Positions 31,267 to 50,966 of a stretch of 64,000 nucleotides of DNA are shown here, in pieces. The translations under genes were made by a program, and so were the position numbers. Source of the stretch: Verrucomicrobiota bacterium (lineage in GTDB: Bacteria; Verrucomicrobiota; Verrucomicrobiia; Opitutales; Seribacteraceae); contig JAQBYT010000005.1 in NCBI GenBank assembly GCA_027622665.1, forward strand, positions 1 to 64,000. Direction: 5' to 3'. Numbering within the stretch: position 1 is the stretch's first letter; every line of letters starts with the position of its first letter. The notes under the pieces are model-generated. The model saw only the letters and a program-made list of their open reading frames with translations, was not told the origin of the DNA and did not search any database.

Positions 31267-31908
31267 CTATCTTTCACAAGACAGCTCATTGCCGGTCATT
31301 CGAAAAACGACGTCTGCCAATTTTTCAACTTCTCGTTTGTTGTGAGTGATGTGCAGAACGGTTACCCCCGTCCCTTTTGCCGTTTGCACCAGCAATTCGT
31401 AAATTTCATCATGGGTCTCATCGTCGAGTGCGCTCAGTGGCTCATCTAGGCATAGGTATCTGGGACGAATGGAAAGAGCTCTTCCCAGTGCAACTCTCTG
31501 GCGTTCCCCTCCGCTTAAGGCATCGGGCATGCGATCCAGTAGATGAGAAACTCCCAGCCTTTCGGCCAGTTCCTCGACTCGCTCCTTAATTTGCTTTGGT
31601 TCGGCTTTTCGCAGAACAAGAGCAAACGCCAATTGCCTAGCCACGCTAAGATGCGGAAATAGCGCCCCGTCCTGCGGTACGTAACCTACGCCGCGTTCTC
31701 CGGGTTTGAGGTTCGTCACGTCTTTTGTCCCTAGCAGGATTTTACCACTGGTAATCGGTCTAAGGCCGCACACGGCTTCGAGAAGGGTTGTCTTTCCGCA
31801 ACCGCTTCTACCCACGAGAATCCCGTATGCTCCTTCCGGCAATTTGAAAGAAATGTCGGAAAGAGAGAATTCTCCCTGTCGAACATGTAGATTTTCTACT
31901 GATATCAT
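31267..31908 (-). CDS. modC: Molybdate/tungstate-type ABC transporter ATP-binding protein
   Basis: GRSGCGKT, VPQD..LFPHL, LSGGE, LDEP; follows modB-like gene. Confidence 0.8.
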   Translation of the reverse strand: MISVENLHVRQGEFSLSDISFKLPEGAYGILVGRSGCGKTTLLEAVCGLRPITSGKILLGTKDVTNLKPGERGVGYVPQDGALFPHLSVARQLAFALVLRKAEPKQIKERVEELAERLGVSHLLDRMPDALSGGERQRVALGRALSIRPRYLCLDEPLSALDDETHDEIYELLVQTAKGTGVTVLHITHNKREVEKLADVVFRMTGNELSCER

Positions 31909-32735
31909 GGTTCCAAGCGTTTCATGCCCATGAGGCGGGAGGTAACCAGCACTGCGGCAGCCGCAAATATCATAATTAGAGAAATCGCCAACATGCCTTT
32001 TAGATTTCCCGCTTGCATCTCGAGATAGACTGAGGTTGGAAGGACTTCAGTTCTCATGCGGGTGGATCCGGCAAATACTAAAATAGGGCCGAACTCGCCT
32101 AGCGATCTCGCCCAAGCAAGGGTGCCCGCCGCCAGAATCCCTCTTTTCGCCTGAGGCATGACGACGAGCCAAAAGGCTTTGCCTCGGTTGCAGCCCAAGG
32201 TAAGAGCCACTTTTTCATAACGGGTCGGTATCTGGTCGAATGAGATGCGCATGGCTCTTGCGGCAAAGGCGCATGCAACCATGAATTGAGCTAGAATGAC
32301 TGCAGGGATTTCGAATACGACCCATTGGCTAGTCCACGAAAAAGGTGCAAAATTAAATAGTGCCAACAGAGATATGCCAATGACCAGAGGAGGCAATACG
32401 ATCGGAATGTCCAAAACCGTATCAAGCAAGCGTTTTCCCGGGAAGTCGAAGCGGGAGGTTAGGTAGCCTAGCGGAACCGCGACCCATAGGGACAGTAACG
32501 TAGAGAGAGAGCAAGAAAGTAGGCTAAGCCCAATGGAATATTGAATTTCTTTGCTTCGCAGGGCAGACAACATCGACTCGGCGTCCACGTAGGCAAGGTC
32601 TGCCGCAATCATGGCGACGATGATCACTACATAGGTTCCGCTTAGGATTGAGAGCCCGACAATGAATGGTACGTCCGACCCCGGTCGAAAGCCGGGTGAG
32701 TCTGTAACGACATTGCCGTTAGTCGATTGCATCAT
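31905..32735 (-). CDS. modB: Molybdate-type ABC transporter permease
   Basis: DIPIVLPPLVIG, WARSLGEFG. Confidence 0.85.
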   Translation of the reverse strand: MMQSTNGNVVTDSPGFRPGSDVPFIVGLSILSGTYVVIIVAMIAADLAYVDAESMLSALRSKEIQYSIGLSLLSCSLSTLLSLWVAVPLGYLTSRFDFPGKRLLDTVLDIPIVLPPLVIGISLLALFNFAPFSWTSQWVVFEIPAVILAQFMVACAFAARAMRISFDQIPTRYEKVALTLGCNRGKAFWLVVMPQAKRGILAAGTLAWARSLGEFGPILVFAGSTRMRTEVLPTSVYLEMQAGNLKGMLAISLIMIFAAAAVLVTSRLMGMKRLEP

Positions 32736-32750
32736 CGAAAAGTTTCGACT

Positions 32751-34331
32751 TTAGTTTACTTTTGCATCCTCCGCTTTCCAGCGGAAGCCGGCATTCAGAA
32801 AACGCGCTTTGGAGTCAAGGGAAGTTATGGCCTCGACTAGCCGTCCAGTCATATGGGGGAACGCACTGTTATCGTAAACGGCAATGTTTTGCGTTGCTCG
32901 GGCGATAGGGTCATTGATGGCAATCGTCTCGAATTGGCCTTTGCTTAGGTTTTGGCAATTCGCCAGGTATACGAGGGCGATGTCCAGTTTGGGATGACCT
33001 TCCATTTGCAAAATTAATTCATGGGCCGTGGGAGTGGTTACTTCCCATGTTCCGTTTGCCTTGATTTTCTCGTTTACACCAGCCTTTGCAAGGAGCTGCC
33101 AGGTGAGGTCTCCCAGCGTGGAGATTTTTTGATCCGTGGTGCCTAGAGATAAATCTTGCCGACCGAGGTCTTCGAGAGTCCGTAAGTTCTTTGGGTTCCC
33201 TTTGCGGACAAGCATTACGATGTCCGTGCTTGAGACGTCGCGAGCACCGCTGAATAGCGAATCGACCTTCCCCATATAGGAGGCATCGCATGTGAGAAAG
33301 GCATCGGGCATGGCTGTCTTCGCTTTGCTCATGTCAATGGCTTTGATGTTGGCGACGAGCGAGCCACAGCCGGCAAATTGCTCGATGATCGCACAGCCTT
33401 CTCTCTTCTCAAAATCCCTCAAGGTTTGAGTAACTGCTTCTCGATTAACTCCGCCGCAATAAATGATTAGTTCGGGCTTCTCTTTCCATTTATCTCCTGC
33501 GACTCCCATGAAGTGATGTTTTGCGAAGTGCATTTGACCCTTCGATGGCGCAGCGAGATATCGAGCGAAAAAAAGAGCTTGTCTGGCTTTTTGCGAAGAA
33601 GATGAAACATTTGCCGTTATGCGGGAGCTAACGTTAGCCAATTCGGGAAGGTTGTGTATCTTGAGGCCGAATTGTTTTGCGGTGGTGTTCCAAAGAAAGC
33701 CGGCTTGCACGATATCTGAGGCGACGACCGCGGCCGCCGCATCGGTCACGCGAGGTGAAGCGGTTTTCTTTGCTGCGTCGAACATTTCCCACTTGCCGAG
33801 CTTTTCAAGAGTGGCCTTGGTTGTTTTTCCGACACCGGCAGCTTCATTGCAAAGAACAAAGGGCACTTCCAGCGCGAGGAATTCATCCAATGACGAAAAG
33901 GCTAAATTTTCTTTTGGGGATGAGGCTATAACGAGATTGAAAGAGGCCAACTGAATGGATTCGGCCGTGAGCCCTTTTTCTCGAGCTCGGTTGGCGAAAG
34001 ATAGATCGGCGGGGATATAAAGGTCAGCTCGGGATTTGTTGCTGTCCCGGTCAAGTTGCAATTTGCCCTCAAGCGCACCACTTGAATCGTAGTCGAGTGT
34101 TATCTTTACTCCGAATTCTTTCTGAAAAGCGATAGCTGCTGCTTCCACGGGCTTCCGTATTCCTGCCGCGCAATAGACGATCAAGTCTTCGGGCGAGGTT
34201 TCCACTTCGGGAAACTTGTGCCATACCGCGATCATCGAGGCTAGAACGAAAATGGATACGAGCGACAAAGTGACCCCGCCATACCATGGCGTTCGCCAAC
34301 GCTTGTCTTTGTCCGGATTGAAAGGATTCAC
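32751..34331 (-). CDS. modA: Molybdate-type substrate-binding protein with two tandem ModA-like domains
   Basis: LIVYCAAG..YDSSGAL (domain 1) and LIIYCGG..FAGCGSL (domain 2); N-terminal TM. Confidence 0.8.
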   Translation of the reverse strand: MNPFNPDKDKRWRTPWYGGVTLSLVSIFVLASMIAVWHKFPEVETSPEDLIVYCAAGIRKPVEAAAIAFQKEFGVKITLDYDSSGALEGKLQLDRDSNKSRADLYIPADLSFANRAREKGLTAESIQLASFNLVIASSPKENLAFSSLDEFLALEVPFVLCNEAAGVGKTTKATLEKLGKWEMFDAAKKTASPRVTDAAAAVVASDIVQAGFLWNTTAKQFGLKIHNLPELANVSSRITANVSSSSQKARQALFFARYLAAPSKGQMHFAKHHFMGVAGDKWKEKPELIIYCGGVNREAVTQTLRDFEKREGCAIIEQFAGCGSLVANIKAIDMSKAKTAMPDAFLTCDASYMGKVDSLFSGARDVSSTDIVMLVRKGNPKNLRTLEDLGRQDLSLGTTDQKISTLGDLTWQLLAKAGVNEKIKANGTWEVTTPTAHELILQMEGHPKLDIALVYLANCQNLSKGQFETIAINDPIARATQNIAVYDNSAFPHMTGRLVEAITSLDSKARFLNAGFRWKAEDAKVN

Positions 34332-34389
34332 AAGCTCCTTAATCTAAGGGATTGATCGGTTGTCCATCAATTGAAAAAGGGTGGATTTC

Positions 34390-35121
34390 CTAACTGCATA
34401 CGAGGCAGTCGACCCTGCGTGTCACATCGATTTTTCGTATATTGAACCGGTTGGCATCGATAAGCATCATCTTTCCTTGGCTGGTCGATCCAAAACCCGC
34501 GATCAGCTTTAGGCCCTCCATCACTCCGATGTTTGCGACGAGAGCGGAAACTGCTCCGAACACGGGAAATTGACGTTTCCAGTGGGGTGGCGTTTCAGGG
34601 AACAGGCAGGCCAGGCACGGGGTTTCACCCGGCACGATGGGCATGACATGCCCTTCGAGGCTGTACATTGCGCAATCGACCATAGTTTTGTTTTGTCGTA
34701 CGCACTCCCGGTTCATCAGGAATCGCTCTTCGAAAAGCGGTGCGCTGGCGAAGACGACGTCGGCTCTACTTACAAGCGCCGCCGCATTGGTTTCGCTGAA
34801 ATTTTCGTTATGAATCTCCACCTCCACTTTTGGATTAAAGGCGGCAAGGGTTTTGGCGGCACTTTCTACGCGTGGTTTCCCCAGCCCTTTCCATTGCATG
34901 AGGATTTGTCGATTCAGGTCATCCTTTCGCAGGTTGCCAGCGTGAACCAATATGAGTTTGCCGATGCCGGCTGCTGCTAAGGCGAAGGCGATGGGGCCTC
35001 CAATGCCCCCGACTCGGGATACGAGGGCAGTTGTGTTTCGAAGCTTCTCTTGGCCTTGTTCGCCGAACCCGGGCACATCCAGTTGCCATTCGTAAATGGC
35101 GCGATCTTCTTCAGTCAGCAT
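34390..35121 (-). CDS. HesA/MoeB/ThiF family E1-like adenylyltransferase, HesA-like
   Basis: VGGIGG, DDLNRQ, two CxxC Zn motifs (CLAC, CLVC); no rhodanese domain. Confidence 0.9.
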   Translation of the reverse strand: MLTEEDRAIYEWQLDVPGFGEQGQEKLRNTTALVSRVGGIGGPIAFALAAAGIGKLILVHAGNLRKDDLNRQILMQWKGLGKPRVESAAKTLAAFNPKVEVEIHNENFSETNAAALVSRADVVFASAPLFEERFLMNRECVRQNKTMVDCAMYSLEGHVMPIVPGETPCLACLFPETPPHWKRQFPVFGAVSALVANIGVMEGLKLIAGFGSTSQGKMMLIDANRFNIRKIDVTRRVDCLVCS

Positions 35122-35193
35122 GGAGGTAGTCTAATTTCGGCAAAGAAGGGGGGAAGGCAAAAGGAAAGGAAGTTTGATTTTTGTCCTTAGATC

Positions 35194-35979
35194 CTAATTT
35201 TTTTCGTAAGTTGTCCAAGTTCCTTTTGCATAGTCCCAAAACTGCCGTGCGTTTTCTCTTTCCTTGTAGTAAAGCCATTCCGATGTGGAGTGACGGTAGA
35301 AAAATGGGTAAAGTGAGCTGCCCGTGTAAAGCCAACCAAGTTGCCCGTCCCACATCCATAGAGCCGATTCGTCGGCACCCGAAACGAATAGCCATCCGTG
35401 CTTGAGATGATAAGCCCATCCATCTCCATTGTCATAGAAATCTCCGAACCATTGTGAACTTTTAAATCCCGCGGCGAAGGTGTCCGTGGTGAGGTGGGAC
35501 CATGGGGAAGCGGCTTTAGCTTCTTCAATTTGCAGCATCAATGTGTAAGCCGAAGTCGACGGCCCTTCGCGATTTGGCCAACGGTACCCTGTGATTTGAA
35601 TTTGATATTCACCTGCCGAGGGAAGGGTTCCGGAGATGCTGGGGTTTGCGATGTCACCGTTGAAAGTTAAGCCGTCCGGCAAACCTTGGATAAGATAGCT
35701 TTGAGCTTGGTGCCGTAGAGTGTAAAATTCAAAGGAGTAGGAGTCCCCCGCCGAACCTGAAGCAGGGTTTTCGCTATTTGCTTTTACATAGGTAGTGGCT
35801 CCCGTTAGCGCGTGTGGCAGAGTTGTGGCCGCTGCTGCGGGCAAGAGAGCCCGAAGTGTTTTAACATGTGCGGCAATCGGAGCGAAAAAGGTCGAAAGGT
35901 GTTTACCGAATGGCAAGATCGGCAAGCGTTGAAGAAGCATGGCCAATGTCATGCATAGGATTTTTGCCCTACTTTTCAT
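35194..35979 (-). CDS. Exported Ig-like protein with Trp-rich C-terminal domain
   Basis: Long leader ending HALTGAT; GLPDGL..ISGT..GEY putative-Ig motif; WFG..GWAYH..HGWL tail. Confidence 0.75.
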   Translation of the reverse strand: MKSRAKILCMTLAMLLQRLPILPFGKHLSTFFAPIAAHVKTLRALLPAAAATTLPHALTGATTYVKANSENPASGSAGDSYSFEFYTLRHQAQSYLIQGLPDGLTFNGDIANPSISGTLPSAGEYQIQITGYRWPNREGPSTSAYTLMLQIEEAKAASPWSHLTTDTFAAGFKSSQWFGDFYDNGDGWAYHLKHGWLFVSGADESALWMWDGQLGWLYTGSSLYPFFYRHSTSEWLYYKERENARQFWDYAKGTWTTYEKN

Positions 35980-35981
35980 CT

Positions 35982-36233
35982 TTAGTTGCATCCGCAGCCA
36001 CCACCTCCTGCTCCGCGACCTCCTCGGGAGGCTTCCCGGCTGTAGAAGGCGTGATCATTCATCTTAACCGCCAATTTGTCTCGATCCGGTCGCATGAGGT
36101 AGTCGGCGAGGTATCCCCTTTGCAGGACGCTCACAGTGGGCTTGGGCGAGCAACCACCAAAGGTAATGGCCGTTAAGACGAATAGCAAAAGCCGCCAAGA
36201 TTTCTTAATTCCTTGTGTCGTGCAGGTATTCAT
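35982..36233 (-). CDS. DUF4266 lipoprotein
   Basis: Lipobox FGGC; terminal REASRGGRGAGGGGCGCN. Confidence 0.88.
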   Translation of the reverse strand: MNTCTTQGIKKSWRLLLFVLTAITFGGCSPKPTVSVLQRGYLADYLMRPDRDKLAVKMNDHAFYSREASRGGRGAGGGGCGCN

Positions 36234-37176
36234 AAATGCCTTTTGTCCATTCAACGCCGTTTCGGTTTTGTATGCAACCTTCCGCTCCGAAAAACCTATC
36301 GATTCTAGCAAGCCCTCGATCCGTTCCATCAAGCAAGGCGCAGGTCGACAGAACACCTGCTTCCAGACAGGAGCGTGAGATGACGGTTGCCGACAGACAG
36401 TTGTTGCTCGTTGGGAAACCTGTGCGATGATCGATCAAGTGGCCGTACCTTTTGCCGTTCTTTTCGAAAAACCTTCGATAGTTCCCCGATGTCGCGACAG
36501 CCATGCCGGAAACCGAAAAAATCCGTTTTGCTTGGCCTTGCTTTCCAGGATCTTCAAGACCGACTCGCCATGCAGTCGCGTCGGGGGGAGAACCTTCGGC
36601 AAAAACATCGCCTCCAAAGTCGATGAGAAAATCTTCCAGCCCGTGCTCGCGGGCCAACTCGGTTACTCGGTCAACGGCATATTCTTTGCCAAAGCCTCCG
36701 AAATCTAGTCCCATCCCTGTTTCGGGCAGGAAGATGGAGTGGTTCTCTCGATGAACTTTCTTCCATCCGATTTTTGAAAGCGCCTCGCTGATTGCTGATT
36801 TGGAGGGGATCTGCGGATTCTCGGCTTTAAAATCCCAAAGGCGGGAAAGGGGAAGGGTGGTGGGATCAAAGAGCCCTTCCGTCAAAAAATGGAGGGTTTC
36901 GCACAGGTCGAAAAGGTGAATGTCTACCTCGTCGATTACAACGGGGTTCCGACCGGCGGCATCATTGATCCGGCATATTAGGCTGTCGTCCCTGAATCGG
37001 GAATAACGGGCCTCAAAACGGTGCACCCAATCGAGGGCGTTTTTTCGAAAGATATCGGCAGCGACCATCGAATTCGCCGTAAAGAGTATTTTGCAATGGG
37101 TGCCCATGGCAGGAAACTGCAGACGAAAGAGACCGTCAGCCAAGACTTCAGGAGGAATTTTAGATGAAGAGTGCAT
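36205..37176 (-). CDS. apbE: FAD:protein FMN transferase
   Basis: AMGT, FDPT, DFGGFGKEYAVD, ATSGNY, HLIDHRTG. Confidence 0.95.
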   Translation of the reverse strand: MHSSSKIPPEVLADGLFRLQFPAMGTHCKILFTANSMVAADIFRKNALDWVHRFEARYSRFRDDSLICRINDAAGRNPVVIDEVDIHLFDLCETLHFLTEGLFDPTTLPLSRLWDFKAENPQIPSKSAISEALSKIGWKKVHRENHSIFLPETGMGLDFGGFGKEYAVDRVTELAREHGLEDFLIDFGGDVFAEGSPPDATAWRVGLEDPGKQGQAKRIFSVSGMAVATSGNYRRFFEKNGKRYGHLIDHRTGFPTSNNCLSATVISRSCLEAGVLSTCALLDGTDRGLARIDRFFGAEGCIQNRNGVEWTKGIYEYLHDTRN

Positions 37177-37178
37177 CC

Positions 37179-38336
37179 TCAGAACTCCCATTGCAGGCCA
37201 ACGGTATAAATATCCGCGTCCGGATACATAAGGGGTGAGGTTACTCCGTCACGGCCTTTCATGTCGTACCTCTCGTAGGCCAAGTCTAGGTTGATGTTGT
37301 CACCTTTGAACATCGTCAGCTTCAGGCCGTAGGCGAGACTCTCCATTTTGGAAATCCGATAGTCTGCCGAATAATGGGGCCCCAACCCCGTGGGAGGAGC
37401 TCCGGAATTTATTTGGGATTCGTCCAAGATCGTGACGTAATAATCAGCCGCTGACTGATTATAGTATCTCAGCAAGGGTCGGACGACAAGATTTTCGCCA
37501 AAGCGCTGGAACCACTGTACTTCGAAGGTGTTGCCTCGAATACCGGAATCGTCGGCAAAGAATCGGTAACTGCCTTGGAGGCTAGAACGCAAGGACTCAA
37601 TGTAGCGAGTTCCCTCGACAAAGACGACGTATGCATTGCGGGCATCTGGGCGGTTTTCAGGTGTTTGCCGAAGAATTTTGGTGCCATGCACCGTTGCGTG
37701 GTAGGCAACGTTTTTGTACGGATCGCTCAAATAACCTGACGGGCGAGAATACGAAAGGTTCACCGCCAACGTAGTCTTGGGGTCGAGGACACGATGGGCA
37801 CCCAAGATGACCTCGGGGGTTCGCTTGGTTTGCTCGTCGAATCCCGGGTATCCTATCATTTGCGTATCCACGGTGTCGTCGAGGTAGGAAATCCCGGCGC
37901 TTAGAGTGAGAGTTTCTTCCGCATATTGACGAGCCAGTCGAACGGCATAACTACGCGAAAGGTAATCGGGTTCATGACTGAGTCCGAACTCGAATGATAA
38001 GTCGTATTCATCGGTTTCTTTCGAAAGGGTGACCACTCCGGCCCGTCTTGTCTCTTCGATCGGGTGGGAAAGCCAGTCGGATTCAGTGGGCGGCAAGCCT
38101 ATGGGAGTGGCCCCCGACCACGTATCCACAATGCCCACGACATCAAGGCTCCATTCTTCCGTGAGGGCTGTTTCCGCTTCGGCGTACCATGAGCGAACGT
38201 GAATCCTATCCCCTTCCTCGACCCATTCGCGATACTTGGCTCGCAATGCCTTTTCGGCGGTGCTCTTCCGGGTGACCAGTACGAGCAACGCGGCGACCGC
38301 CAAGAAGCGAATAGCTCTAATTGCGCTCGTCTTCAT
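37179..38336 (-). CDS. DUF3570 outer-membrane beta-barrel protein
   Basis: Signal peptide, DTWSGAT, EPDYLS, GYLSDPY, ENRPD, SADYR, terminal Phe; adjacent to apbE and DUF4266. Confidence 0.88.
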   Translation of the reverse strand: MKTSAIRAIRFLAVAALLVLVTRKSTAEKALRAKYREWVEEGDRIHVRSWYAEAETALTEEWSLDVVGIVDTWSGATPIGLPPTESDWLSHPIEETRRAGVVTLSKETDEYDLSFEFGLSHEPDYLSRSYAVRLARQYAEETLTLSAGISYLDDTVDTQMIGYPGFDEQTKRTPEVILGAHRVLDPKTTLAVNLSYSRPSGYLSDPYKNVAYHATVHGTKILRQTPENRPDARNAYVVFVEGTRYIESLRSSLQGSYRFFADDSGIRGNTFEVQWFQRFGENLVVRPLLRYYNQSAADYYVTILDESQINSGAPPTGLGPHYSADYRISKMESLAYGLKLTMFKGDNINLDLAYERYDMKGRDGVTSPLMYPDADIYTVGLQWEF

Positions 38337-38490
38337 TCGGGGAGAGCCTTGCGAAAGGGTGAGGTTCGGTCAAGCTCTGCAAGTCCGTATTGCTATCGGA
38401 TTGTCTGGACTTGTTTCTTTCCCTCAGTTGTCCTGCAATCCTATCTTGCCGAAATTCGGCTTACTCGCGAGGAATCGTTTACTTGATTAT

Positions 38491-39189
38491 ATGAATTGGA
38501 AAAAACGCATATTCGTTGTCGACGATGAGGAAGATCTTACCGACCTTCTGCAATTCCAATTGAAGCGCGAGGGATTCAAAGTGGAGACCGCGAACGATCC
38601 ATTCGTGGCTCTAAGCGTGGCCCGCGACTATGGGCCGGATTTAATCGTGCTGGACGTCATGATGCCCGACTTGGATGGCTACCAACTGCTGCGCATGTTC
38701 CGATCCGACCACCAGTTGACCGATGTTCCCGTGGTCATGCTCACGGCTCGAGCGGGGGTGGAAGACCGGATCAAGGGGCTTGAGAGCGGTGCCGACGATT
38801 ACATGTGCAAGCCATTCGAAACAAAGGAACTGATTCTGCGCATCCGTTCCATTTTGAAACGGAGCAGTGAACAAAACCGAGCTCATTCAGGGCGAATTGC
38901 CATAGGCAACGTCGCCATCGACGAGGAAGACCATTCCGTGAGCATTGGCGGTGTGGAGATTCCCTTTACTGTGACCGAGTTCAAGCTGCTTCAGTTTTTC
39001 CTTAAGCGTAAGGGTAGGGTGCAAACCCGCGAGAACCTCCTTTTGAGCGTTTGGAAGTTCGATGCCGAAGTCGAGACTCGCACCGTAGACGTTCATATTC
39101 GCCGACTGCGGAAAAAGATGGAGACGGCCGACTTAGAGATCGAGACGGTGCGTGGGGTTGGATATCGTTTGGCGGTAAAAGCAAAGTAG
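38491..39189 (+). CDS. phoB: OmpR/PhoB-family response regulator
   Basis: VVDDE, LDVMMP, KPF, RTVDVHIRRLR..IETVRGVGY; phosphate-uptake context. Confidence 0.8.
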   Translation: MNWKKRIFVVDDEEDLTDLLQFQLKREGFKVETANDPFVALSVARDYGPDLIVLDVMMPDLDGYQLLRMFRSDHQLTDVPVVMLTARAGVEDRIKGLESGADDYMCKPFETKELILRIRSILKRSSEQNRAHSGRIAIGNVAIDEEDHSVSIGGVEIPFTVTEFKLLQFFLKRKGRVQTRENLLLSVWKFDAEVETRTVDVHIRRLRKKMETADLEIETVRGVGYRLAVKAK

Positions 39190-39195
39190 ATTGCC

Positions 39196-40038
39196 GTGTA
39201 TGTGGAACCATGGATCTTGTCGGCTGTCCTTCTCGGTTTTGTTTTGGTCTGTTCGGTACTTTGGCGCCGTCGGAGATCCATGGACGGAAAACCTGAAGAG
39301 CAAATTTTAGTTGATATTGGAAACGAGGAACTGAATCCTCACGATAATACCCGCAGGGATTTTGTGGCTAACGTATCGCATGAGTTGCGTACTCCGCTAG
39401 CCATTGTGAAAGGATTCGCGGAAACTCTGGACGACAGCTACGAGGAACTGTCAGGCAAGAAACGGCGAGAATTCATAGGAAAGATTCGAAAAAATTCGGA
39501 TCGTCTTTGCTCCTTGGTCGAGGATCTCCTCCATTTGGCGGAATTGGAGTCTCCTTCGCATGAACTGAGACTCGAACCCGGCAGTCTTTCAGTTGTTGTC
39601 CGTACCGTGGCAGACAGGTTGGGCGAGCGACTAGATCTGAATACCCAAAGAATACGACTGGAGCTTGCCGAGGAACGGAAGCCGATCTCCTTCGATCCCT
39701 TGAAGGTAGAGTGTGTCATCGAGAACCTTTTGAGCAATGCCCTTCGCTATGCCCGCGATTCCTCCGTTATAACTATTCGAACTATTTTTGATGAAGATCC
39801 AAAAGTGATCCGTTGTGAAGTTCAAGACGATGGCTGCGGCATTCCAGAGAAGGACGTTCCCCATCTTTTCGAGCGATTCTATCGTGTCGACAAGGGACGT
39901 TCCCGGGAGAGCGGTGGCACGGGCTTGGGTTTAAGCATCGTGAAGCATATCGTGGAATTGCATGGCGGCGCGGTATCCGTTCGGAGTGAGCTCGGTGAAG
40001 GAACGATCTTCTCCTTTAGCCTGCCCTGCGGTTCCTGA
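39196..40038 (+). CDS. phoR: PhoR-like histidine kinase, compact
   Basis: RRDFVANVSHELRTP, FERFYRVDKGRSRESGGTGLGL. Confidence 0.8.
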   Translation: MYVEPWILSAVLLGFVLVCSVLWRRRRSMDGKPEEQILVDIGNEELNPHDNTRRDFVANVSHELRTPLAIVKGFAETLDDSYEELSGKKRREFIGKIRKNSDRLCSLVEDLLHLAELESPSHELRLEPGSLSVVVRTVADRLGERLDLNTQRIRLELAEERKPISFDPLKVECVIENLLSNALRYARDSSVITIRTIFDEDPKVIRCEVQDDGCGIPEKDVPHLFERFYRVDKGRSRESGGTGLGLSIVKHIVELHGGAVSVRSELGEGTIFSFSLPCGS

Positions 40039-40179
40039 ATTTACTACGCCTCTTCCCTCAATTGGGAAATTGGGAGTGAATCATCTCCTGCATTTGTAAC
40101 GTTTTCTTCGCAAGATCGTAATTTTAATCTGCTATTATAAATGGAAACTTTAAACCATTCACAATCCGATAACAGTAAA

Positions 40180-41298: not shown

Positions 41299-41341
41299 AT
41301 GAAGTATCATTTTACCGAAACATCTAAACCTGGTCTGAAAA

Positions 41342-43174: not shown

Positions 43175-43204
43175 CTCTGCCGCCGGTTTCCGTTTGGCAA
43201 AGCC

Positions 43205-43627
43205 TTATACGGTCGATTGCACCCACTGCTCGACTCTGTATCTGATGAGATCGCGGATTTCGCGGGTCCGCTCCAATTTTTCTTCCTCCGCGACTTGCAA
43301 GGTAGAGGGATCAGGGAATCCCCAATGCAATCGCTTGACTGCCTCCGGGAAGGTCGGGCATCTTTCCGCGGATGTCTCGTCGCAGACGGTTATTACATAG
43401 GTGAACTCTTGGGCCCGGCGAATAAAATGCTCGACGGAGTCGCAAGTGTTCTTCGAAATATCCAAACCCACTTCTTGCATGGCTTCGACGACGATGGGGT
43501 TCAGTTTGCCTGGCTCGATGCCTGCGCTTTCGGCTTCGAATCTTCCCTTGCCGAATTGATTGAGGAAAGCTTCCGCCATTTGTGAACGAGCACTGTTGTG
43601 AATGCATACGAATAAAACCTTTTGCAT
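43205..43627 (-). CDS. arsC: Arsenate reductase, LMW-PTP/thioredoxin type
   Basis: VLFVCIHNSARSQMAE, TVCD..RCPTFP, HWGFPDP. Confidence 0.9.
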   Translation of the reverse strand: MQKVLFVCIHNSARSQMAEAFLNQFGKGRFEAESAGIEPGKLNPIVVEAMQEVGLDISKNTCDSVEHFIRRAQEFTYVITVCDETSAERCPTFPEAVKRLHWGFPDPSTLQVAEEEKLERTREIRDLIRYRVEQWVQSTV

Positions 43628-43785
43628 CCTCATATACCAAAGCCTACTTATCTGAATGGTCAAGCCATGGAGATTGAGTATTGTGGTGGTAGTCTGTAAC
43701 TAATCCGTCTTTTTGAGGATCATATAAGCGATAAATCAAAAGTTTTGTTTCATCCGGCTTGCCACGATGAGCCTATATCGTTGCG

Positions 43786-44484
43786 ATGTTAGATGAAATT
43801 ATGCCCTTTCTGGAAGTCAGTCACTTACGCAAGAGCTTTGTTTCGCCTGATGGCGGGAAGTCTCTCGTTGTGGACGTAGAAAGTTTTTCCCTGACTGCCG
43901 GAGATCTCTTCGGCATGCGGGGCGAGAGTGGTTCGGGCAAGACGACGTTCCTTCATCTTTTGGCGGGTATACTTCGACCGGACGAGGGATCCGTCATTAT
44001 AGACGGGACCGAAGTGTCCGAATTGAACGAGGCCGCCCGCGATCACCTCCGGGCTTCTGCAATCGGTTACGTCTTCCAGTCTTTCAACCTTCTTCAGGGT
44101 TTTACCTGTCTCGAAAACATCATGCTCGCCATGTCCTTTGCCGGGAAGGTGGACGAGACTCGAGCCAAAGAGTTGCTCGATAGGGTAGGCCTTTCTCACC
44201 GTTTGGCTCATTATCCCCGTCAGCTTTCCATTGGGCAGCAGCAACGCGTGGCCCTCGCTCGGGCCTTGGCTAATCGTCCCAAGTTGGTATTGGCCGACGA
44301 GCCAACGGGCAACCTCGATCCCGGCAATGCTCGCAAGGCCCTCGCTCTCCTCCGAGAACTTTGCTCCGATGCCGGGTCGGCTCTCCTCCTCGTTAGTCAC
44401 GATGAGAACGTGATTGGCGGTTTTGAAGAAAATCTTGATTGGAGTGACCTCAACCGAGCCTTCGCCGAGGCGATGAACGATTGA
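43786..44484 (+). CDS. ABC transporter ATP-binding protein (LolD/MacB-like)
   Basis: [25 protein letters not shown]. Confidence 0.92.
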   Translation: MLDEIMPFLEVSHLRKSFVSPDGGKSLVVDVESFSLTAGDLFGMRGESGSGKTTFLHLLAGILRPDEGSVIIDGTEVSELNEAARDHLRASAIGYVFQSFNLLQGFTCLENIMLAMSFAGKVDETRAKELLDRVGLSHRLAHYPRQLSIGQQQRVALARALANRPKLVLADEPTGNLDPGNARKALALLRELCSDAGSALLLVSHDENVIGGFEENLDWSDLNRAFAEAMND

Positions 44485-44488
44485 ACCG

Positions 44489-45709
44489 ATGTTGCGCTCC
44501 GGTCCATGGGTAATCCTCTTCCTTGCGATCCGCGGGTTGCGGCAATATGCCTTTTCCACGGCAGTGGCATCTCTTGCGATTGCCTTGGCGGGTGGCCTGT
44601 TTCTTGGAACTTGGAAAATCAAGGAGGAAGCTAAAAACGCTTTTTCTCGTTCTTCGGGTGGCTACGATGCCGTCCTCGGGCCAAGAGGTTCCAAGCTGCA
44701 ACTCGTACTCAACGGCCTTTTTCATCTCGAGGCCTCGCCTGGTAATCTTTCATGGGAACAGTATGAAATCATTCGTGATACTCGAGGCGTAAGCGAAGCC
44801 TACCCAATCGCCGTGGGTGACAACTATCTAGGCTTTCGTCTTGTCGGAACGCTTGCCGAGATGTTTGAAAAGCACGAATGGCGAAAAGATCGGAAATACG
44901 TTGTAGAATCAGGCGGTCGGCTTTTTACCGACAATGCGAAAGAAGCTCTTGTCGGAGCCTTTGTCGCTCGTAAGCTTGGATTGAAGGTGGGCGACAACTT
45001 TCATCCCTATCACGGTCTCACCTTCAAGGAAGAGGCGAAGCACAAGGATCTCTATGTCGTTGTCGGCATACTCGAGGCTACCGGTACCCCTGGCGACAAG
45101 GTTATATGGATTCCGATCAAGGGTATCCAGCTTATGGATGGGCATAACCCAAAGACCGCTACCGATGTCAGTGCCGTTCTTCTTAACCTCAAGGGTGCTG
45201 CCGGCTTCATGCTGGATATGAAGTACAACAAGCAAGGCAATGTAGCCACACTCGCTTGGCCTGTTGCGGGCACCCTTGCTAGTTTCTTCGAGCGACTCGT
45301 TTGGTTTCAGCGTGTGCTTGAGATTATAGCCTATCTTGTCGCCTTTGTGGCGGCCTGCGTCATTCTAGCTATTTTGCGAAACGCCATGAACGAGCGTCGG
45401 CGAGAGATCGCCATTTTGCGTAGTCTCGGCGCTCGGCGCTCTACGGTCACGGCGGTCGTTCTCGCCCAGGCCGGACTGATTACTCTGCTTGGGGTAGTGG
45501 GCGCCGCCTTCGCCTATTTGGGTATCGGCTTTCTCGCGGCTTCCGTGATACGCGAGCAAACGGGCGTGCTTCTCGAGCCTTTCACCTATGACCCGAGCTT
45601 CTTTTACGTTCCAATAGGTATGCTTGCCGTTGGGTTGTTAAGCGGTTTGTTGCCTTCTCTCCAAGCTTACCGGTCCGATGTAGCCAAGAACCTCGTCCAG
45701 CAGTCTTGA
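44489..45709 (+). CDS. ABC transporter permease (FtsX/MacB-like)
   Basis: GSKLQLVLNGLFH, PIAVGDNY, ERRREIAILRSLGA. Confidence 0.9.
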   Translation: MLRSGPWVILFLAIRGLRQYAFSTAVASLAIALAGGLFLGTWKIKEEAKNAFSRSSGGYDAVLGPRGSKLQLVLNGLFHLEASPGNLSWEQYEIIRDTRGVSEAYPIAVGDNYLGFRLVGTLAEMFEKHEWRKDRKYVVESGGRLFTDNAKEALVGAFVARKLGLKVGDNFHPYHGLTFKEEAKHKDLYVVVGILEATGTPGDKVIWIPIKGIQLMDGHNPKTATDVSAVLLNLKGAAGFMLDMKYNKQGNVATLAWPVAGTLASFFERLVWFQRVLEIIAYLVAFVAACVILAILRNAMNERRREIAILRSLGARRSTVTAVVLAQAGLITLLGVVGAAFAYLGIGFLAASVIREQTGVLLEPFTYDPSFFYVPIGMLAVGLLSGLLPSLQAYRSDVAKNLVQQS

Positions 45710-45841
45710 ATAAGTGAAGTCAGTGAAAGTCCTTTAAGGCTATATTGTTCTAAGTGGTAGATGCTTTGCACCGCCCGATGCTTGCAATAAAGCCTCAAGT
45801 TCGATTAACTCTTCTACTTTGTGCATCACTTTGATTTTTCC

Positions 45842-46426
45842 GTGAAGACTTATTTTAAAGCATTCTATTGGAGATTGTTTTCGATCTCCGGACTTGCCTT
45901 TTTCTTGGGTGCTTGCGGCGCCGAGGACGGATTTGTGGATGAAGGGAAGAATGCCTCTCCATCGTCCCAACAGGATTACCTTCCCGAAATTGCCCGACCA
46001 TCCTTCCCCAAAGTCAATTTCGGAGTCCTTACGGGTTTTCGGTATAATGTGAATTGGGACACCGATGGCAGGAGTCCCGACCAAGCCGCCTTTGCGCGCC
46101 GCGTACCTTCTGCTGCCCGCAGCCTGCATGGTCGTCGGGTCTCTGTGGAAGGCTATATGATTCCCGTGACCCTTGTCGAAAATGATTCCAAGACTACCGA
46201 GTTTCTTTTGCTCCCCGACACCAAGGCATGTTGCGAAGGAAAGACCCCAAAGCAAAACGGTTGGATCCTCGTGAGTACTCCGCCCTTTGGCGAAAAGCCA
46301 CAAATAGACAAACTTTTGCGCGTCACCGGCGAATTCACAGTCAAGGAAAGGTGGAGCCCTGCAGACGGTTTCTTCAAGGGTCTGTATCATATGACTTGCG
46401 AAACGCTCGCTCCCGTTGCCTTATAA
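45842..46426 (+). CDS. DUF3299-like lipoprotein
   Basis: Lipobox LGAC; VEGYMIP, EFLLLP..CC; start uncertain (45821 or 45842). Confidence 0.75.
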   Translation: MKTYFKAFYWRLFSISGLAFFLGACGAEDGFVDEGKNASPSSQQDYLPEIARPSFPKVNFGVLTGFRYNVNWDTDGRSPDQAAFARRVPSAARSLHGRRVSVEGYMIPVTLVENDSKTTEFLLLPDTKACCEGKTPKQNGWILVSTPPFGEKPQIDKLLRVTGEFTVKERWSPADGFFKGLYHMTCETLAPVAL

Positions 46427-46449
46427 CTGGAGTAACCGGAATTTTGAAA

Positions 46450-47280
46450 ATGAAGCCCTCAATAACCCTTACCGTTTTTATAACCTGTGGGTTCTTCCTC
46501 ATCAGTGGTTGTGGCGATGACGCTGGCGAAAATCATGCATCAGGCCCGCCACCAAAAGGGGATCCTATTGTCGGCGAACCGATTCAGGACGCTAAGGGAA
46601 ATTCAACTATTGCGGAAACCGAGGGTTTGCTTGGCCCAAAAGATAATCCCTCAAACACGAAGCCTTCACTTCCTGTTGAAGGTGAAGAGGTATCGGTCGT
46701 GGAAGGTGAAATTGCGAGTGTCGGAACGCCCGACGACCCTTTCGTTGCCCCCAAGGAAAAGGAAATCGTAGAACTGCCTTTCCCTCCTGGTTCGGACGCT
46801 AACGCTTCTACTGTCAATATTCCGGAACCAGTGGTTTCCCTCCTGCCCCCCTTGCCTAAGGGAAGCGGTTACGCTCCTCTAAGTTTTGCCAGTATGTCGA
46901 AGTTTGCCTACGAGGTCGACTGGGAACAGGACGGCATTAAATTTGACATCTCGGCCTTTGCTCGTCGCGTACCCGTTACGGTCCGTCAAATGGATGGGCT
47001 AGATGCAGCCGTTGAGGGCTTTATGATCCCCACAGTAGTCAACGAAGACAATAAGGTCACCGAGTTCTTGCTACTCCCCGACCAAATGAGTTGCTGTTTT
47101 GGCAAAGCTCCCGAGGCCAACGGTTGGGTTGTCGTGACGGCACCCAAGGGAGTTGAAATCATGATGGACAGGATTATTCGAGTGACCGGCACCATGGCCG
47201 TGGAGGAAAAGTGGGACGAAGAGTTCTTTGTAGGTCTCTACCATTTGACCTGCGACAAGATTACGGGCCCGGCGCTCTAA
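46450..47280 (+). CDS. DUF3299-like lipoprotein with Pro-rich linker
   Basis: Lipobox ISGC; VEGFMIP, EFLLLPDQMSCCFG. Confidence 0.8.
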   Translation: MKPSITLTVFITCGFFLISGCGDDAGENHASGPPPKGDPIVGEPIQDAKGNSTIAETEGLLGPKDNPSNTKPSLPVEGEEVSVVEGEIASVGTPDDPFVAPKEKEIVELPFPPGSDANASTVNIPEPVVSLLPPLPKGSGYAPLSFASMSKFAYEVDWEQDGIKFDISAFARRVPVTVRQMDGLDAAVEGFMIPTVVNEDNKVTEFLLLPDQMSCCFGKAPEANGWVVVTAPKGVEIMMDRIIRVTGTMAVEEKWDEEFFVGLYHLTCDKITGPAL

Positions 47281-47289
47281 CTCTTGCCA

Positions 47290-47568
47290 TCATCCGCCTG
47301 ACATCGGGGTGATCAAAATTACCTCCGATTCGTCTTCTAGCGAAACATCGGCCCTAAGGTCGACTTGGGTGCCATTTACGGCTACGACCAAGGTCGGTAC
47401 TGGATTCCCGTCTTCATTCACAACGAATTTCGAAAATTCGGGACCATGCTGCTCGGAAAGATTTCTAAGTAAATCCACAAGCCCTACTCCATCGGCGAGC
47501 TCGATGCCTTCCTCGGAGGTTCCTGCAGCAGCAGCAAGCTGCGAAGTATAGCGAAGTGCGATTTTCAT
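47290..47568 (-). CDS. MoaD/ThiS-family ubiquitin-like sulfur carrier
   Basis: 92 aa, VAVNG, C-terminal PMSGG. Confidence 0.9.
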   Translation of the reverse strand: MKIALRYTSQLAAAAGTSEEGIELADGVGLVDLLRNLSEQHGPEFSKFVVNEDGNPVPTLVVAVNGTQVDLRADVSLEDESEVILITPMSGG

Positions 47569-48245
47569 GATACGCTTTCGGCGATACTTCCTTTCTCCAT
47601 CCGAATGGAACGGGATGCCCGTCCCGCCGCGCGTTTGTCGTGCGTGACCATGAGCACCGTGCCTCCTTCCTTAGCGAAGCCGGCAAGGTGATCAAGGATC
47701 GAATCGGCATTCTCGGGATCGAGATTGCCGGTCGGTTCGTCGGCCAACAAAAGTTGGGGTTCGAGAAGCAACGCTCGGGCGAGCGCTACTCGCTGCTGTT
47801 CGCCTACGCTTAAGCTGGATGGCACATGGTGTCGGCGATCGGTTAGGCCAAACTTTTCAAGTAAAGCCTTCGCCTTGTCTTCTGCTCCGGGAAGGGCTCG
47901 AGCTAGGGTGGGGGCGAGCACGTTGTCCAATGCGTCAAGGTAGGGGACGAGATGAAATTGTTGAAAGACAAAGCCGATGTGTTTCGCCCGGATGCTTGCT
48001 CTCCTTGCGGCGTCTATTTCGTAGGGCCGAGTTCCCATGATTTCCACTTCCCCTTGATCGGGTCTCAACAATCCTCCCGCGATCAAAAGAATGGTCGATT
48101 TTCCGCAACCACTGGGCCCGCCCAGAGCTACGAATTCGCCCGACGCGATCTCTAGACTCATGTCGTTCACTGCCGCTACGGACGTGCCTTTTGGCCCCGC
48201 AAACGTCTTGTGAACATTTGTCGCTCTCAGAGTAAAGTCACTCAT
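47565..48245 (-). CDS. ABC transporter ATP-binding protein (LolD/MacB-like)
   Basis: [25 protein letters not shown]. Confidence 0.92.
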
Positions 48246-49551
48246 TGCGAAGGATGGTCGCTGGATCTCTGTTAGCGGCTTGCAGCGCGGGCAACCATGA
48301 TGCCGCGCAAGAGAGGACGGGTACGGATAAAAGGACTAGAGGAATATCTCCCCGAAGAGACCTTAGGTCGAATTCATGAAGTGTAGCTTTGAGGGTTTCG
48401 CTTAGGAGAAAAGCGAAAAGCAGTGTCAAGCCGGCCCCAAACAATCCAACGAGAAACGCTCGCCCCATCAACGCGCCCAAGATGGAACCCGTGGAAATTC
48501 CCATGGCTCGGAGGATGCCGATTTCAGCTTGACGATCTCGAGAGTTGGCAAAGGAGAGAAAGGAAACCCAAGCCATAGCACCAAGAATGACGACAGTGAG
48601 AAGAGCCGTGTACTTTTCCTTGTCCTCGAATCTTAGCTGGGTGCGGTCAGCTTGAAGTTTGATCGCTTCGGCCTTTTTAGAAGCAATGGAACTTTGACTA
48701 TGTTTCTTCGCCTTGTTTCGAGCTTCCGCTCGGGCTAGGGCTTTGCTTTCGGTTTCGATGACTTTCGTCCCAGGTAGTATACCAGCTATTTCACGACGAA
48801 TCTCCCCGAGGCGGTCAATTGTTGCGCAATTGCATTCCAGCGCCTTGATGGCATTGATGCGTCCCTCCTCCCCAAGCAGTTCCTGACATTCGCCGAGGTG
48901 CATCCAGACGGTGATGTCGTCCTTTGTGCCTCGTTCCGGATGACACTTGTCGACGATGAATTCGCGACCCATGAATACGGTGGCGTTCCCTTCCTTCAGA
49001 TCGAGCGATCGGTGGAGTTCGTGACCGAGTACGATCCGCCCTTTCCGCACGGGGTCAATGAGTGGTTTCTTTGGATCACGGTGCGCGATTGGCACTTCGC
49101 CGCGAATACCGATTAGGATGACGGTGCGTTCCCGCTCGGGCCACTTCAACTTGCGGGTAAGACTCGGCAGGAGATGGTTGACGGTTACGATGTTGCTTTC
49201 AGCCAAGGTGGCTGCATAGGACTCGGGCATTGTCTTTGAAGCGAACCCTTCTGCGTAAACTTCGCTAAGCTCTTGTCCTTCGGGAAAGATGAAGATGTTG
49301 AAACCGAGTCCCTTCATCGTTTTGCGGACATCGTCCTCGTAGGCTTTCATCTCTTTCGTGAACTTTGCTTCCATGGCGGAGGTTTCTTCGTTCATCCTCG
49401 TTAGCATTTTCGAAGTTCGCAAGTCGTGCGCGCCAAGTAACGCGACCACTGCTACAAGTCCGGCTACACTCGTTGCTATCGTTGCCACGGCGAGTCCGAA
49501 GCTTAGCTTGCGGTGCAAAATTTCCCGGCCGATAAGTCGCCTGAGGTTCAC
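48238..49551 (-). CDS. ABC transporter permease (FtsX/MacB-like) with extracytoplasmic CxC
   Basis: N-terminal TM, large soluble domain with LECNC, EIGILRAMG, three C-terminal TMs. Confidence 0.85.
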   Translation of the reverse strand: MNLRRLIGREILHRKLSFGLAVATIATSVAGLVAVVALLGAHDLRTSKMLTRMNEETSAMEAKFTKEMKAYEDDVRKTMKGLGFNIFIFPEGQELSEVYAEGFASKTMPESYAATLAESNIVTVNHLLPSLTRKLKWPERERTVILIGIRGEVPIAHRDPKKPLIDPVRKGRIVLGHELHRSLDLKEGNATVFMGREFIVDKCHPERGTKDDITVWMHLGECQELLGEEGRINAIKALECNCATIDRLGEIRREIAGILPGTKVIETESKALARAEARNKAKKHSQSSIASKKAEAIKLQADRTQLRFEDKEKYTALLTVVILGAMAWVSFLSFANSRDRQAEIGILRAMGISTGSILGALMGRAFLVGLFGAGLTLLFAFLLSETLKATLHEFDLRSLRGDIPLVLLSVPVLSCAASWLPALQAANRDPATILRNE

Positions 49552-50756
49552 TGCTCGCGATTTTTGTTCAGTACAAAAGTGCCAATCAGCAAGATGCCCG
49601 AGACCAACACAACGGCAACGACGAGGCCGTTCGAAATGGGAGGTTCATCCGTTGCCGTCTCATGTTCGACTACCTCCGAAGAAGATGCGTTCGCCTCGGG
49701 TTCAGCACTGTTTGCTCCGGCATCATCTTTTGCGGGTTCGTTGGCCGCAATGAGATCTTCGACTCCCGTCAGCGGGGGCAGCTCCTTCTCGGCGATTACG
49801 GAGCTTCCTTCAAGGGCAGTCCACCAATCGGCTTTTACCAGTATGTCCATTCCCGGGTTTTGATTCTTAACTTGGCAAGAGCATGCGCCGCAAAGATAAC
49901 CGCAGTCGGCCAGTGCGTTTTCCTCGCTTATCCCGGCGCTGATAAGTGGGGGCAAGACACGACCTTTGCCAAATACCGGGAACAGCATCGGTTTGTCCTC
50001 CATTTCCTTGTCGAGAAGGTCGTCTTCCAAGTGCAGAAGCATTGCCCGCAATATGACTTCTTGAGGATCCTTGCGAGAGAGGCGCAAGATTGAAAAGGCG
50101 ATCTTGAGGGGAACGGAGGATTCCAGAATGTTTTCTTCGTCTCCGGGGCCGAGAAGAAGGTTTGGATCGTCAAGAGCACTTTGCTGAATAACGCCTTCAG
50201 GAACAGAAATCTCTTTTTCTGCAATCTTGGCGTATTTTTCCAGTGTTTTGAAAAGTGCTTCGTCTTCTTTCTGGTTCCCGCTTTCGAGGAAAAGCCAGAC
50301 TGCTGAATCGCCGGAAAGAATTCGTTTTACCAGTTCTCGCCGGATCGGAGAGTCCAGAATTTGGTTGATGTGATTTCTTGTGAAGTTCCCGTTCCAGATG
50401 GGATCAGCGTCCTGTTCGAAGGCTTCGAATGGGAAAAAAAGGTGAATAGAGACCGAAGCGTTTTGGTCACTGTGAAGTTTTTTCCATCGTGCAAATTGCT
50501 TTTCCTCCTTCGCCAGATCGAGAGCTTCGAAACGAAGGTTTATCATCGGGCCGTTCTGTCCGACTAAGTTTTCTTCCAAATAAGTGACGTTTGCTTGCTC
50601 CTCGCTAGTTAGGTTGCCGTCATGAACAATAACCAATTGGTAGTGATCGGGTTGCCATCGTTCCAAGGCGTAACGAAATACGGGCACCTGACAAGCTTCC
50701 GTGATCACAGCAGCAACTAGGAGAATTAAGCAAACTGTGGTTTTGCGAGCATTCAT
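49548..50756 (-). CDS. Exported Cys-rich hypothetical protein with C-terminal membrane anchor
   Basis: Signal peptide ending TEA-CQVPVFRYALERW; CGYLCGACSC; acidic linker + TM. Confidence 0.8.
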   Translation of the reverse strand: MNARKTTVCLILLVAAVITEACQVPVFRYALERWQPDHYQLVIVHDGNLTSEEQANVTYLEENLVGQNGPMINLRFEALDLAKEEKQFARWKKLHSDQNASVSIHLFFPFEAFEQDADPIWNGNFTRNHINQILDSPIRRELVKRILSGDSAVWLFLESGNQKEDEALFKTLEKYAKIAEKEISVPEGVIQQSALDDPNLLLGPGDEENILESSVPLKIAFSILRLSRKDPQEVILRAMLLHLEDDLLDKEMEDKPMLFPVFGKGRVLPPLISAGISEENALADCGYLCGACSCQVKNQNPGMDILVKADWWTALEGSSVIAEKELPPLTGVEDLIAANEPAKDDAGANSAEPEANASSSEVVEHETATDEPPISNGLVVAVVLVSGILLIGTFVLNKNREQ

Positions 50757-50877
50757 GAATTGGATGTCCACTAAAGTGTCTCGTTCGGGATTTAGGAGGT
50801 CAAGCAGATCTTCCCCAAGACGAGTTTTTCCTTACCGAGGACTCCGAATGCACAATTTCCGAAATCCCGATGGATGA

Positions 50878-50900
50878 GAGAATCATGAGAATCATTCGAT
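50878..50900. promoter_or_regulatory. Possible Fur-family operator
   Basis: GAGAATCAT twice in tandem; TGAGAATCATTCGAT matches 12/15 of the palindrome TGAGAATCATTCTCA. Confidence 0.25.
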
Positions 50901-50966
50901 TTCGGTGAGGTGAGATGAAATTTGGAGTATTGAATCTCGGTCGGAAATTAATTCAGTAAAAGCGGT

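Follow-up and report, generated by a model that had tools for sequence, protein, structure and literature searches.

In the window analysed here, a stretch of 64,000 nucleotides (nt) from a Verrucomicrobiota bacterium (contig JAQBYT010000005.1), eight minus-strand genes make up one conserved, ancestral module. They encode a protein with three invariant cysteines (the Cys protein), an ATP-binding cassette (ABC) permease with its ATPase, a ubiquitin-like carrier ending in two glycines (the GG-carrier), an E1-like enzyme of the HesA clade (the E1), and an importer composed of a double-domain ModA (ModA2), ModB and ModC. The module is independent of nif, and some of the genomes that have it yielded no moaC. 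We propose, with a probability of roughly 0.45, that it makes a pterin-free molybdenum- or tungsten-sulfur (Mo/W-sulfur) centre and loads it into beta-propeller proteins with four conserved cysteines, working like NosDFY-NosL.

A collinear module and its interruption

A sequence-only reading of the window had described two minus-strand operons and predicted that removal of the roughly 12 kb between them would restore an ancestral gene order. All eight open reading frames (ORFs) were found where it had placed them, with the families it had assigned. In the first set, the Cys gene (402 aa, 49548..50756) is followed by an FtsX/MacB-type permease of the type VII ABC kind (437 aa, 48238..49551; Pfam FtsX above cut-off), a LolD/YbbA-type ABC ATPase (226 aa, 47565..48245; family profiles) and a ThiS/MoaD-family carrier (92 aa, ending in MSGG, 47290..47568), with successive overlaps of 4, 8 and 4 nt. 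In the transmembrane scan, the permease has four membrane segments and a large periplasmic domain after the first, which together with the LolD-type ATPase is the make-up of a type VII ABC system. The second set consists of the E1 (243 aa, 34390..35121), membrane-anchored ModA2 (32751..34331), a ModB-like permease (276 aa, 31905..32735) and a ModC/WtpC-like ATPase without a TOBE domain (213 aa, 31267..31908), spaced by 58, 15 and -4 nt. This gene set stands as described, but the E1 need not begin its operon, since a DUF3570-ApbE-DUF4266-ORF run on the same strand precedes it by only 72 nt.

To follow the gene order elsewhere, a profile of the Cys protein was built from 44 sequences; it retrieved 299 relatives on genome contigs, of which the best 80 loci were taken, and a second set comprised 80 distant metagenome loci, many of them short. 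Runs were counted with hidden Markov models on one strand with a gap limit of 700 nt. The eight genes were unbroken in the order Cys protein-FtsX permease-ATPase-GG-carrier-E1-double ModA-ModB-ModC in 15 of the 80 genome loci; 14 of these runs fall among the 48 loci that extend 8.2 kb or more downstream. An unbroken same-strand run of the first five was present in 21. This collinearity is far above chance. Three further loci (L068, L083 and L087) have the same gene order without passing the strict run rule, while the metagenome loci hold the same parts in other orders, for example Cys-permease-ATPase-ModA2-ModB-ModC-carrier-E1 (L191, L196 and L219). The two operons are thus adjacent and co-occurring in other genomes, which bears out the order predicted for the window. 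The closest relatives of the Cys protein carry Opitutales labels, and the module is also present in a cultured aerobe, Rubritalea tangerina (L083).

As for the split itself, the module is unsplit in L015 and L017, where phoB-phoR (inverted in the window) follow directly after modC. In L016, E1-ModA2-ModB resume only about 4.8 kb after the carrier, and a DUF3299/FtsX/ABC block stands directly after the carrier in L009-L011, L013, L014, L016, L018 and L019, as it does in the window. Because the gap is absent from the first two loci, shorter in the third and begins in the same way in close relatives, the 12.2 kb between the gene sets (35122..47289, no strand assigned) are a lineage-specific insertion and not part of the system.

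Some loci depart from the common layout. Genome G130 has two module copies (contigs C7 and C33; L112 and L113), one of them adjoining a canonical ModAB-ModC with TOBE, and also possesses nitrogenase. Tandem permease paralogues occur in L115, L119, L255 and L256; one of those in L119 lacks the CxC motif of the permease (see below), and together this suggests a heterodimer.

The HesA-clade enzyme, the carrier and the importer

The E1 scores 161 bits against the ThiF-family profile (cut-off 28.1) and keeps two Zn-binding CxxC pairs, the equivalents of C172/175/244/247. That it is HesA-like, as had been claimed, is confirmed: its best annotated plasmid relatives are cyanobacterial HesA proteins with 44-45% identity (others reach at most 35%), one encoded in nifW-hesA-hesB and the other, from Nostoc, among mop, modAB and modD near nifN. 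In a tree of 38 sequences, with few outgroups and with long branches flagged, 31 module E1s and the two cyanobacterial HesA join at 100/100, apart from MoeB/MoeZ. The nucleotide site is altered. Escherichia coli MoeB residues R14, G38, D62, S69, N70, K86 and D130, which we take to serve ATP/Mg binding, are replaced in the window E1 by W, R, H, D, D, R and P, respectively, and C187 by a gap; W12, R36, H60 and P128 are kept in at least 95% of module E1s.

The carrier scores 38.5 bits against Pfam ThiS (cut-off 22.5), and its C-terminal GG is present in all 42 sequences aligned. Of 11 short loci, 8 have another ThiF-family gene next to those for the carrier and the HesA-clade enzyme, and all seven ATP-site residues are intact in the seven second E1s that were aligned. 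Because the MoeB adenylation residues are lost and a canonical second E1 is often adjacent, the module E1 probably does not itself charge the carrier. From this, we infer that a canonical E1 charges the carrier and that the HesA-clade enzyme uses it once charged. As a separate observation, the housekeeping MoeZ gene contains one TGA in 6 of 50 genomes; in G012:C3, G014:C93, G021:C100 and G030:C20 (L264-L267) it is in frame at the position of MoeB Cys187 and probably encodes selenocysteine. Selenocysteine-containing MoeB is known from marine metagenomes.

Mutant phenotypes described for nitrogen-fixing bacteria are pertinent here. According to passages of PMC6361004, Paenibacillus hesA mutants are partially rescued by molybdate or cystine and incompletely by moeB, nitrate reductase is unaffected by hesA loss, HesA is not needed there for the molybdenum cofactor (Moco), and it is loosely tied to Mo and S. 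In Leptolyngbya, hesA loss lowers nitrogenase activity to 34% with normal growth, and the role of HesA in nitrogen fixation is termed unknown, as passages of PMC6428710 state.

The importer resembles molybdate systems at some distance. SBP_bac_11 matches ModA2 twice, the solved structures closest to it are ModA, molybdate-binding proteins, and C54, S84, C322 and C348 are conserved in the alignment. Domain 1 keeps S84 as the equivalent of ModA Ser39, while domain 2 has C322 at that position, which we assume to be anion-binding. The best-matching NCBIfam models all stay under their cut-offs, with 51 against 62.5 bits for ModA, 192 against 210 (TIGR01581) and 146 against 183 for ModB, and 212 against 440 and 170 against 285 for ModC. 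The window ModA and ModB are the only tblastn matches of their kind in the source genome, although Moco enzymes are present.

The source genome (93.5% complete) keeps its canonical pathways elsewhere. Contig C55 carries a moaC-mobA-moaD-moaE run and a moeA-moaA pair (mobA and moaA being labelled from our reading of the sequences), and contig C40 a thi operon that includes thiS and a MoeZ-type E1 (the other thi labels likewise). The window carrier is the third ThiS-family gene of the genome, which has three ThiS matches, and the window E1 the second ThiF-family gene; neither belongs to the canonical Moco or thiamine sets. In line with the reported absence of moaC, moaE, moeA and nif from the window, whole-genome family searches placed MoaC, MoaE and MoeA on C55 and detected no nitrogenase. 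No moa gene was found in the module neighbourhoods that were screened for them.

Co-occurrence was then examined in 50 genomes chosen from the 80, comprising 21 with a largely contiguous module, 8 with a partial one and 21 with the Cys gene alone. The HesA-clade E1 was detected in 48 (at least 46% identity, two partial), MoaC in 49 and MoaE in 45; nitrogenase was above cut-off in one of 56 genomes, G130, on a contig other than the module's. In an even sample of the phylum (201 genomes), the Cys gene occurred in 6, the E1 in 4, all of them Cys-positive, and MoaC in 49. In a sample of 251 genomes from another class, there were 43 with the Cys gene, 84 with MoaC and 22 with the HesA-clade E1 (called at 53% identity or more, the next matches having at most 40%), 21 of which were Cys-positive. 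MoaC was not found in 7 of these 21 genomes, which are 86-97% complete drafts from 4 families. G139 (95% complete, 7 contigs) has all eight genes in two places and a propeller, with no match to MoaC, MoeA, the DMSO-reductase family or nitrogenase. G297 (97% complete) has Cys-permease-ATPase-ModA2-ModC, an E1 with carrier and four propellers inside 30 kb; the MoaC search there was negative.

The Cys protein, its likely clients and neighbouring genes

To call this protein Cys-rich, as the sequence-only reading did, was an overstatement: its 402 aa include 6 Cys, and 26% of the ORFs of at least 300 aa in this genome are as rich in Cys. What stands out is that three Cys are invariant. Cys22 (50691..50693, minus strand, as are all module features; alignments A1, A4 and A6) is the predicted N-terminal residue of the mature protein and lies in the motif ACQVPVFRYALERW; C292 and C294 belong to the motif C289-G-A-C292-S-C294 (49875..49892), identified in the alignments, in which C289 is present in 144 of 253 sequences. 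Hydrophobic stretches at residues 8-26 and 378-396 correspond to a Sec signal, cleaved in an AxA|C context, and a C-terminal membrane anchor, and the residue before Cys22 is Ala in 221 of the 235 homologues bearing the motif. The predicted fold consists of tandem thioredoxin domains; the CxxC that oxidoreductases of this fold carry behind strand 1 is absent, and residues 23 to 284 are free of Cys. Searches with Pfam and NCBIfam profiles yielded no family; the relatives make up 3577 clusters at 50% identity (E<=0.001). Every extracytoplasmic part of the module has conserved Cys, including the permease with its periplasmic C240-N-C242 (48826..48834); 54 permeases were aligned, and each of the two Cys is kept in at least 95% of them.

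Four further observations concern the Cys gene. In P0094 it is continuous with the C-terminal part of the FtsX permease, which may be an assembly deletion, and P0156 is duplicated in tandem, its second copy being devoid of the Cys motifs. In the related metagenome loci L146, L147, L148, L151 and L152, a large DUF6797 and cupredoxin protein follows it. A deeper contig from RNA libraries (runs X1 and X2) reaches from the end of the cyclophilin gene into the first part of the Cys gene (50549-51050), contigs of this sort being unable to give strand or level.

The commonest other neighbours are PQQ_2-type beta-propellers, present in 45 of the 80 loci and directly adjoining the Cys gene in 36 of 79, counts that include a shorter partner propeller without the four-Cys motif. 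The motif, C-x(30-45)-[RK]xxC-x(18-20)-CxC, was matched by 43 of 46 long propellers, and its four Cys are invariant in an alignment with rows as little as 19% alike; its profile was found in 39 of the 80 genome loci and 30 of the 80 metagenome loci. The source genome has four such propellers, all outside the window (contigs C4, C10, C31 and C44), and the motif occurs in all 120 listed homologues of one of them. There are at least 3404 propeller relatives. The proposed clients have two propeller regions and a methyltransferase-like domain, and propellers of 900-1700 aa occur in up to four diverged copies. Two propellers lead a ten-gene same-strand run in L039, L049, L055 and L083 (R. tangerina), and propellers lead a run without the Cys gene in L138 and L144.

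From these linkages, the four-Cys secreted double beta-propellers are likely clients of the module. Since no Tat motif was found among 101 propeller homologues with a recognisable N-terminus, any propeller cofactor would be inserted after export, and the LamG or malectin domains seen in many of them suggest enzymes acting on sugars. The Cys protein had been seen as the periplasmic recipient of the metal. Because four-Cys propeller genes are linked to the Cys gene in many genomes, it is more likely a metal-loading chaperone than the end point.

The inserted DNA contains several blocks. Nearest the E1 is a 265-aa ORF without Pfam match (35194-35991), whose last 90 residues, rich in aromatics, are repeated about 28 times across the genome, and then the same-strand DUF3570-ApbE-DUF4266 run (35982-38336), presumably a flavinylation-type cluster. 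A phosphate block follows, with a PhoB/PhoR pair, porin O/P, a Na/Pi cotransporter and an ArsC-like gene (38236-43663). An ABC ATPase, an FtsX permease and two DUF3299 genes (43786-47280) lie on the plus strand, convergent toward the carrier, and in our view resemble zinc-regulated zrgBCD blocks; in L010, L013, L014 and L016, a 517-524 aa ORF of this block matches both FtsX and DUF3299.

Mechanism, alternatives and known systems

For the metal, the chemistry and the membrane route, we infer the following sequence of steps. Double-domain ModA with ModBC would import molybdate or tungstate, and the GG-carrier would be charged to a thiocarboxylate by a canonical E1, either MoeZ or ThiF, whose gene may adjoin the module or lie elsewhere. 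The HesA-clade enzyme would bind the charged carrier and transfer its sulfur onto the metal. The Mo/W-sulfur product would then get to the periplasm, a candidate route in some lineages being a TauE-family gene. There, the type VII ABC system may drive by ATP a hand-over outside the membrane, from the CxC of the permease to the site formed by the N-terminal Cys and the CxC of the Cys protein, which would finally load the Sec-exported propeller. Delivery through the transporter, as earlier supposed, is doubtful because, according to passages of PMC5985334, substrate is not carried over the inner membrane by transporters of the MacB/LolCDE type.

Several points weigh against this proposal, its weak sides being the metal, the membrane crossing and the genomes without some of the parts. 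Since ModA, ModB and ModC all stay under NCBIfam cut-offs, sulfate, thiosulfate or selenate may still be the substrate. MoaC is enriched: all but one of the 50 chosen Cys-positive genomes have it, compared with 49 of the 201 in the phylum sample, and it is present in 14 of the 21 genomes with both Cys gene and E1 against 70 of 230 (kin not being independent). The TauE search of the source genome was negative. Among 34 Cys-positive genomes, 16 gave no match to the permease, and 15 of these 16 keep the E1; several of them have the reduced order propeller-Cys-ModA2-ModB-ModC-E1, and in their fetched loci no carrier lies beside the E1. Of the 43 Cys-positive genomes in the class sample, 22 yielded no HesA-clade E1, and no propeller matched in G130, by a search that also missed known copies. 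Finally, hesA is dispensable for growth in Leptolyngbya (passages of PMC6428710).

The same relay might carry another cargo: the imported oxyanion would be one of sulfur or selenium, or else the metal would be Fe, Co, Ni or Cu, and the sulfur supplied would go to an Fe-S cluster or to a claw site of CxC type in the propellers. We regard this as rather unlikely, even though, besides the low importer scores, sulfate-binding models weakly match ModA2 domain 2, G130 has a canonical ModAB-ModC with TOBE next to the module's own importer, and a TauE gene is present in 6 of the 11 short loci. The CxxCSC and CxC motifs are also reminiscent of the sites in nitrile hydratase and acetyl-CoA synthase. Against another cargo speak the molybdate-binding proteins as closest solved relatives of ModA2, the sister group of the E1, a Mo-linked HesA flanked in Nostoc by mop, modAB and modD, and the fact that the source genome, which has Moco enzymes, contains the module importer as its sole ModA/ModB match. 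Less probable again is that the module branches off from the synthesis of Moco or tungstopterin; in that case, carrier and E1 would be a second MoaD/MoeB pair and a pterin cofactor would go to the Sec-exported propellers. The frequency of MoaC and MoaE in the chosen genomes and the enrichment repeated in the class sample would fit it, but not the seven genomes of that sample with Cys gene and E1 in which MoaC was not found, G139, which is also without MoeA or DMSO-reductase-family matches, the screened neighbourhoods devoid of moa genes, the missing MoeB residues, or the independence of Paenibacillus Moco from HesA (passages of PMC6361004).

Flow could also be inward, with the propellers and the Cys protein capturing Mo/W outside, the type VII ABC system unloading it onto ModA2, and HesA and carrier processing it in the cytoplasm for ordinary Mo enzymes. 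No export step is required here, the source genome has no other ModA/ModB match, and HesA is a low-Mo aid in Paenibacillus (passages of PMC6361004); yet G139 has the module with no match to any Mo-enzyme family searched, and the size, diverged copies and sugar-binding-type domains of the propellers look like those of enzymes, so that we hold this to be quite improbable. The least probable explanation, in our estimate, makes the Cys protein a disulfide or thiol-redox foldase for propellers, with Cys that form disulfides and no metal sites, the Mo importer and HesA being linked by shared regulation only. The predicted tandem thioredoxin fold is like the b-b' part of protein disulfide isomerase (PDI), and in one sample about half of the cases have Cys-permease-ATPase with no HesA detected. 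Its thioredoxin site, however, has no CxxC, the Cys gene is present in 21 of 22 genomes with a HesA-clade E1, and the parts stay together across many rearrangements.

A 2009 survey of E1-like enzymes reportedly may bear on the novelty of the module. In a full-text literature search, covering mostly titles and the beginnings of abstracts, no description of the eight-gene module was found, nor is it among the classes in main-text passages of a 2006 survey of ThiS/MoaD neighbourhoods (PMC1779556) or listed in those of a 2018 survey of Mo utilisation (PMC6147048). If our proposal of a Mo/W-sulfur centre is true, marine and freshwater Verrucomicrobia have a new metal-cofactor pathway and enzyme family. 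The question of HesA function would then become testable in cultured R. tangerina, with a candidate carrier, charging enzyme and end product for a HesA-clade enzyme. A wider version, which we put forward tentatively and with less confidence than the proposal itself, is that Verrucomicrobia and their relatives possess a kind of Mo/W cofactor distinct both from pterins and from the iron-molybdenum cofactor. HesA would make it together with a sulfur carrier of its own, its insertion in the periplasm would serve a large family of sugar-acting beta-propellers at present annotated as BamB- or PQQ-like, and the same chemistry would explain nif HesA.

The nif HesA of cyanobacteria, Paenibacillus and Frankia belongs to the same clade as the module E1, with 44-45% identity, loss of MoeB Asp62, Asp130 and Cys187, and a location near modABC. 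In contrast, the module E1 lies outside nif clusters and adjoins a GG-carrier, which was not seen in the two nif loci fetched, and W12, R36, H60 and P128 are specific to it. A beta-grasp carrier with GG and a ThiF-family enzyme are shared with MoaD-MoeB-MoaE and ThiS-ThiF-ThiG, but the module has no MoaE or ThiG acceptor, and the canonical sets are on C55 and C40. ModABC/WtpABC have ModA-like binding domains and homologues of ModB and ModC; unlike them, the module importer has a pair of binding domains, with Cys in place of the anion-binding Ser in the second one, lacks TOBE and stays under all NCBIfam cut-offs. Likeness to PQQ-dependent dehydrogenases and BamB-like propellers is at the level of PQQ_2-type blades, whereas the proposed clients have two propeller regions, a methyltransferase-like domain and the four-Cys motif, and solved structures match their N-terminal blades only. 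With thioredoxin/PDI oxidoreductases, the Cys protein shares the predicted fold and not the CxxC.

The catalytic domain of NosZ, too, is a beta-propeller. In NosDFY-NosL, an ABC complex and a membrane-tethered periplasmic Cys-bearing chaperone build a metal-sulfur centre in an exported enzyme (passages of PMC8457098), as we propose for the module. Its ABC system is, however, of FtsX type and its putative chaperone a predicted tandem thioredoxin, and it has its own oxyanion importer, a HesA-clade enzyme and a GG-carrier; no Pfam or NCBIfam match to the NosD, NosY, NosL or NosZ families was found among its proteins. By analogy, the module would work like NosDFY-NosL, being neither a member nor a relative of that system.

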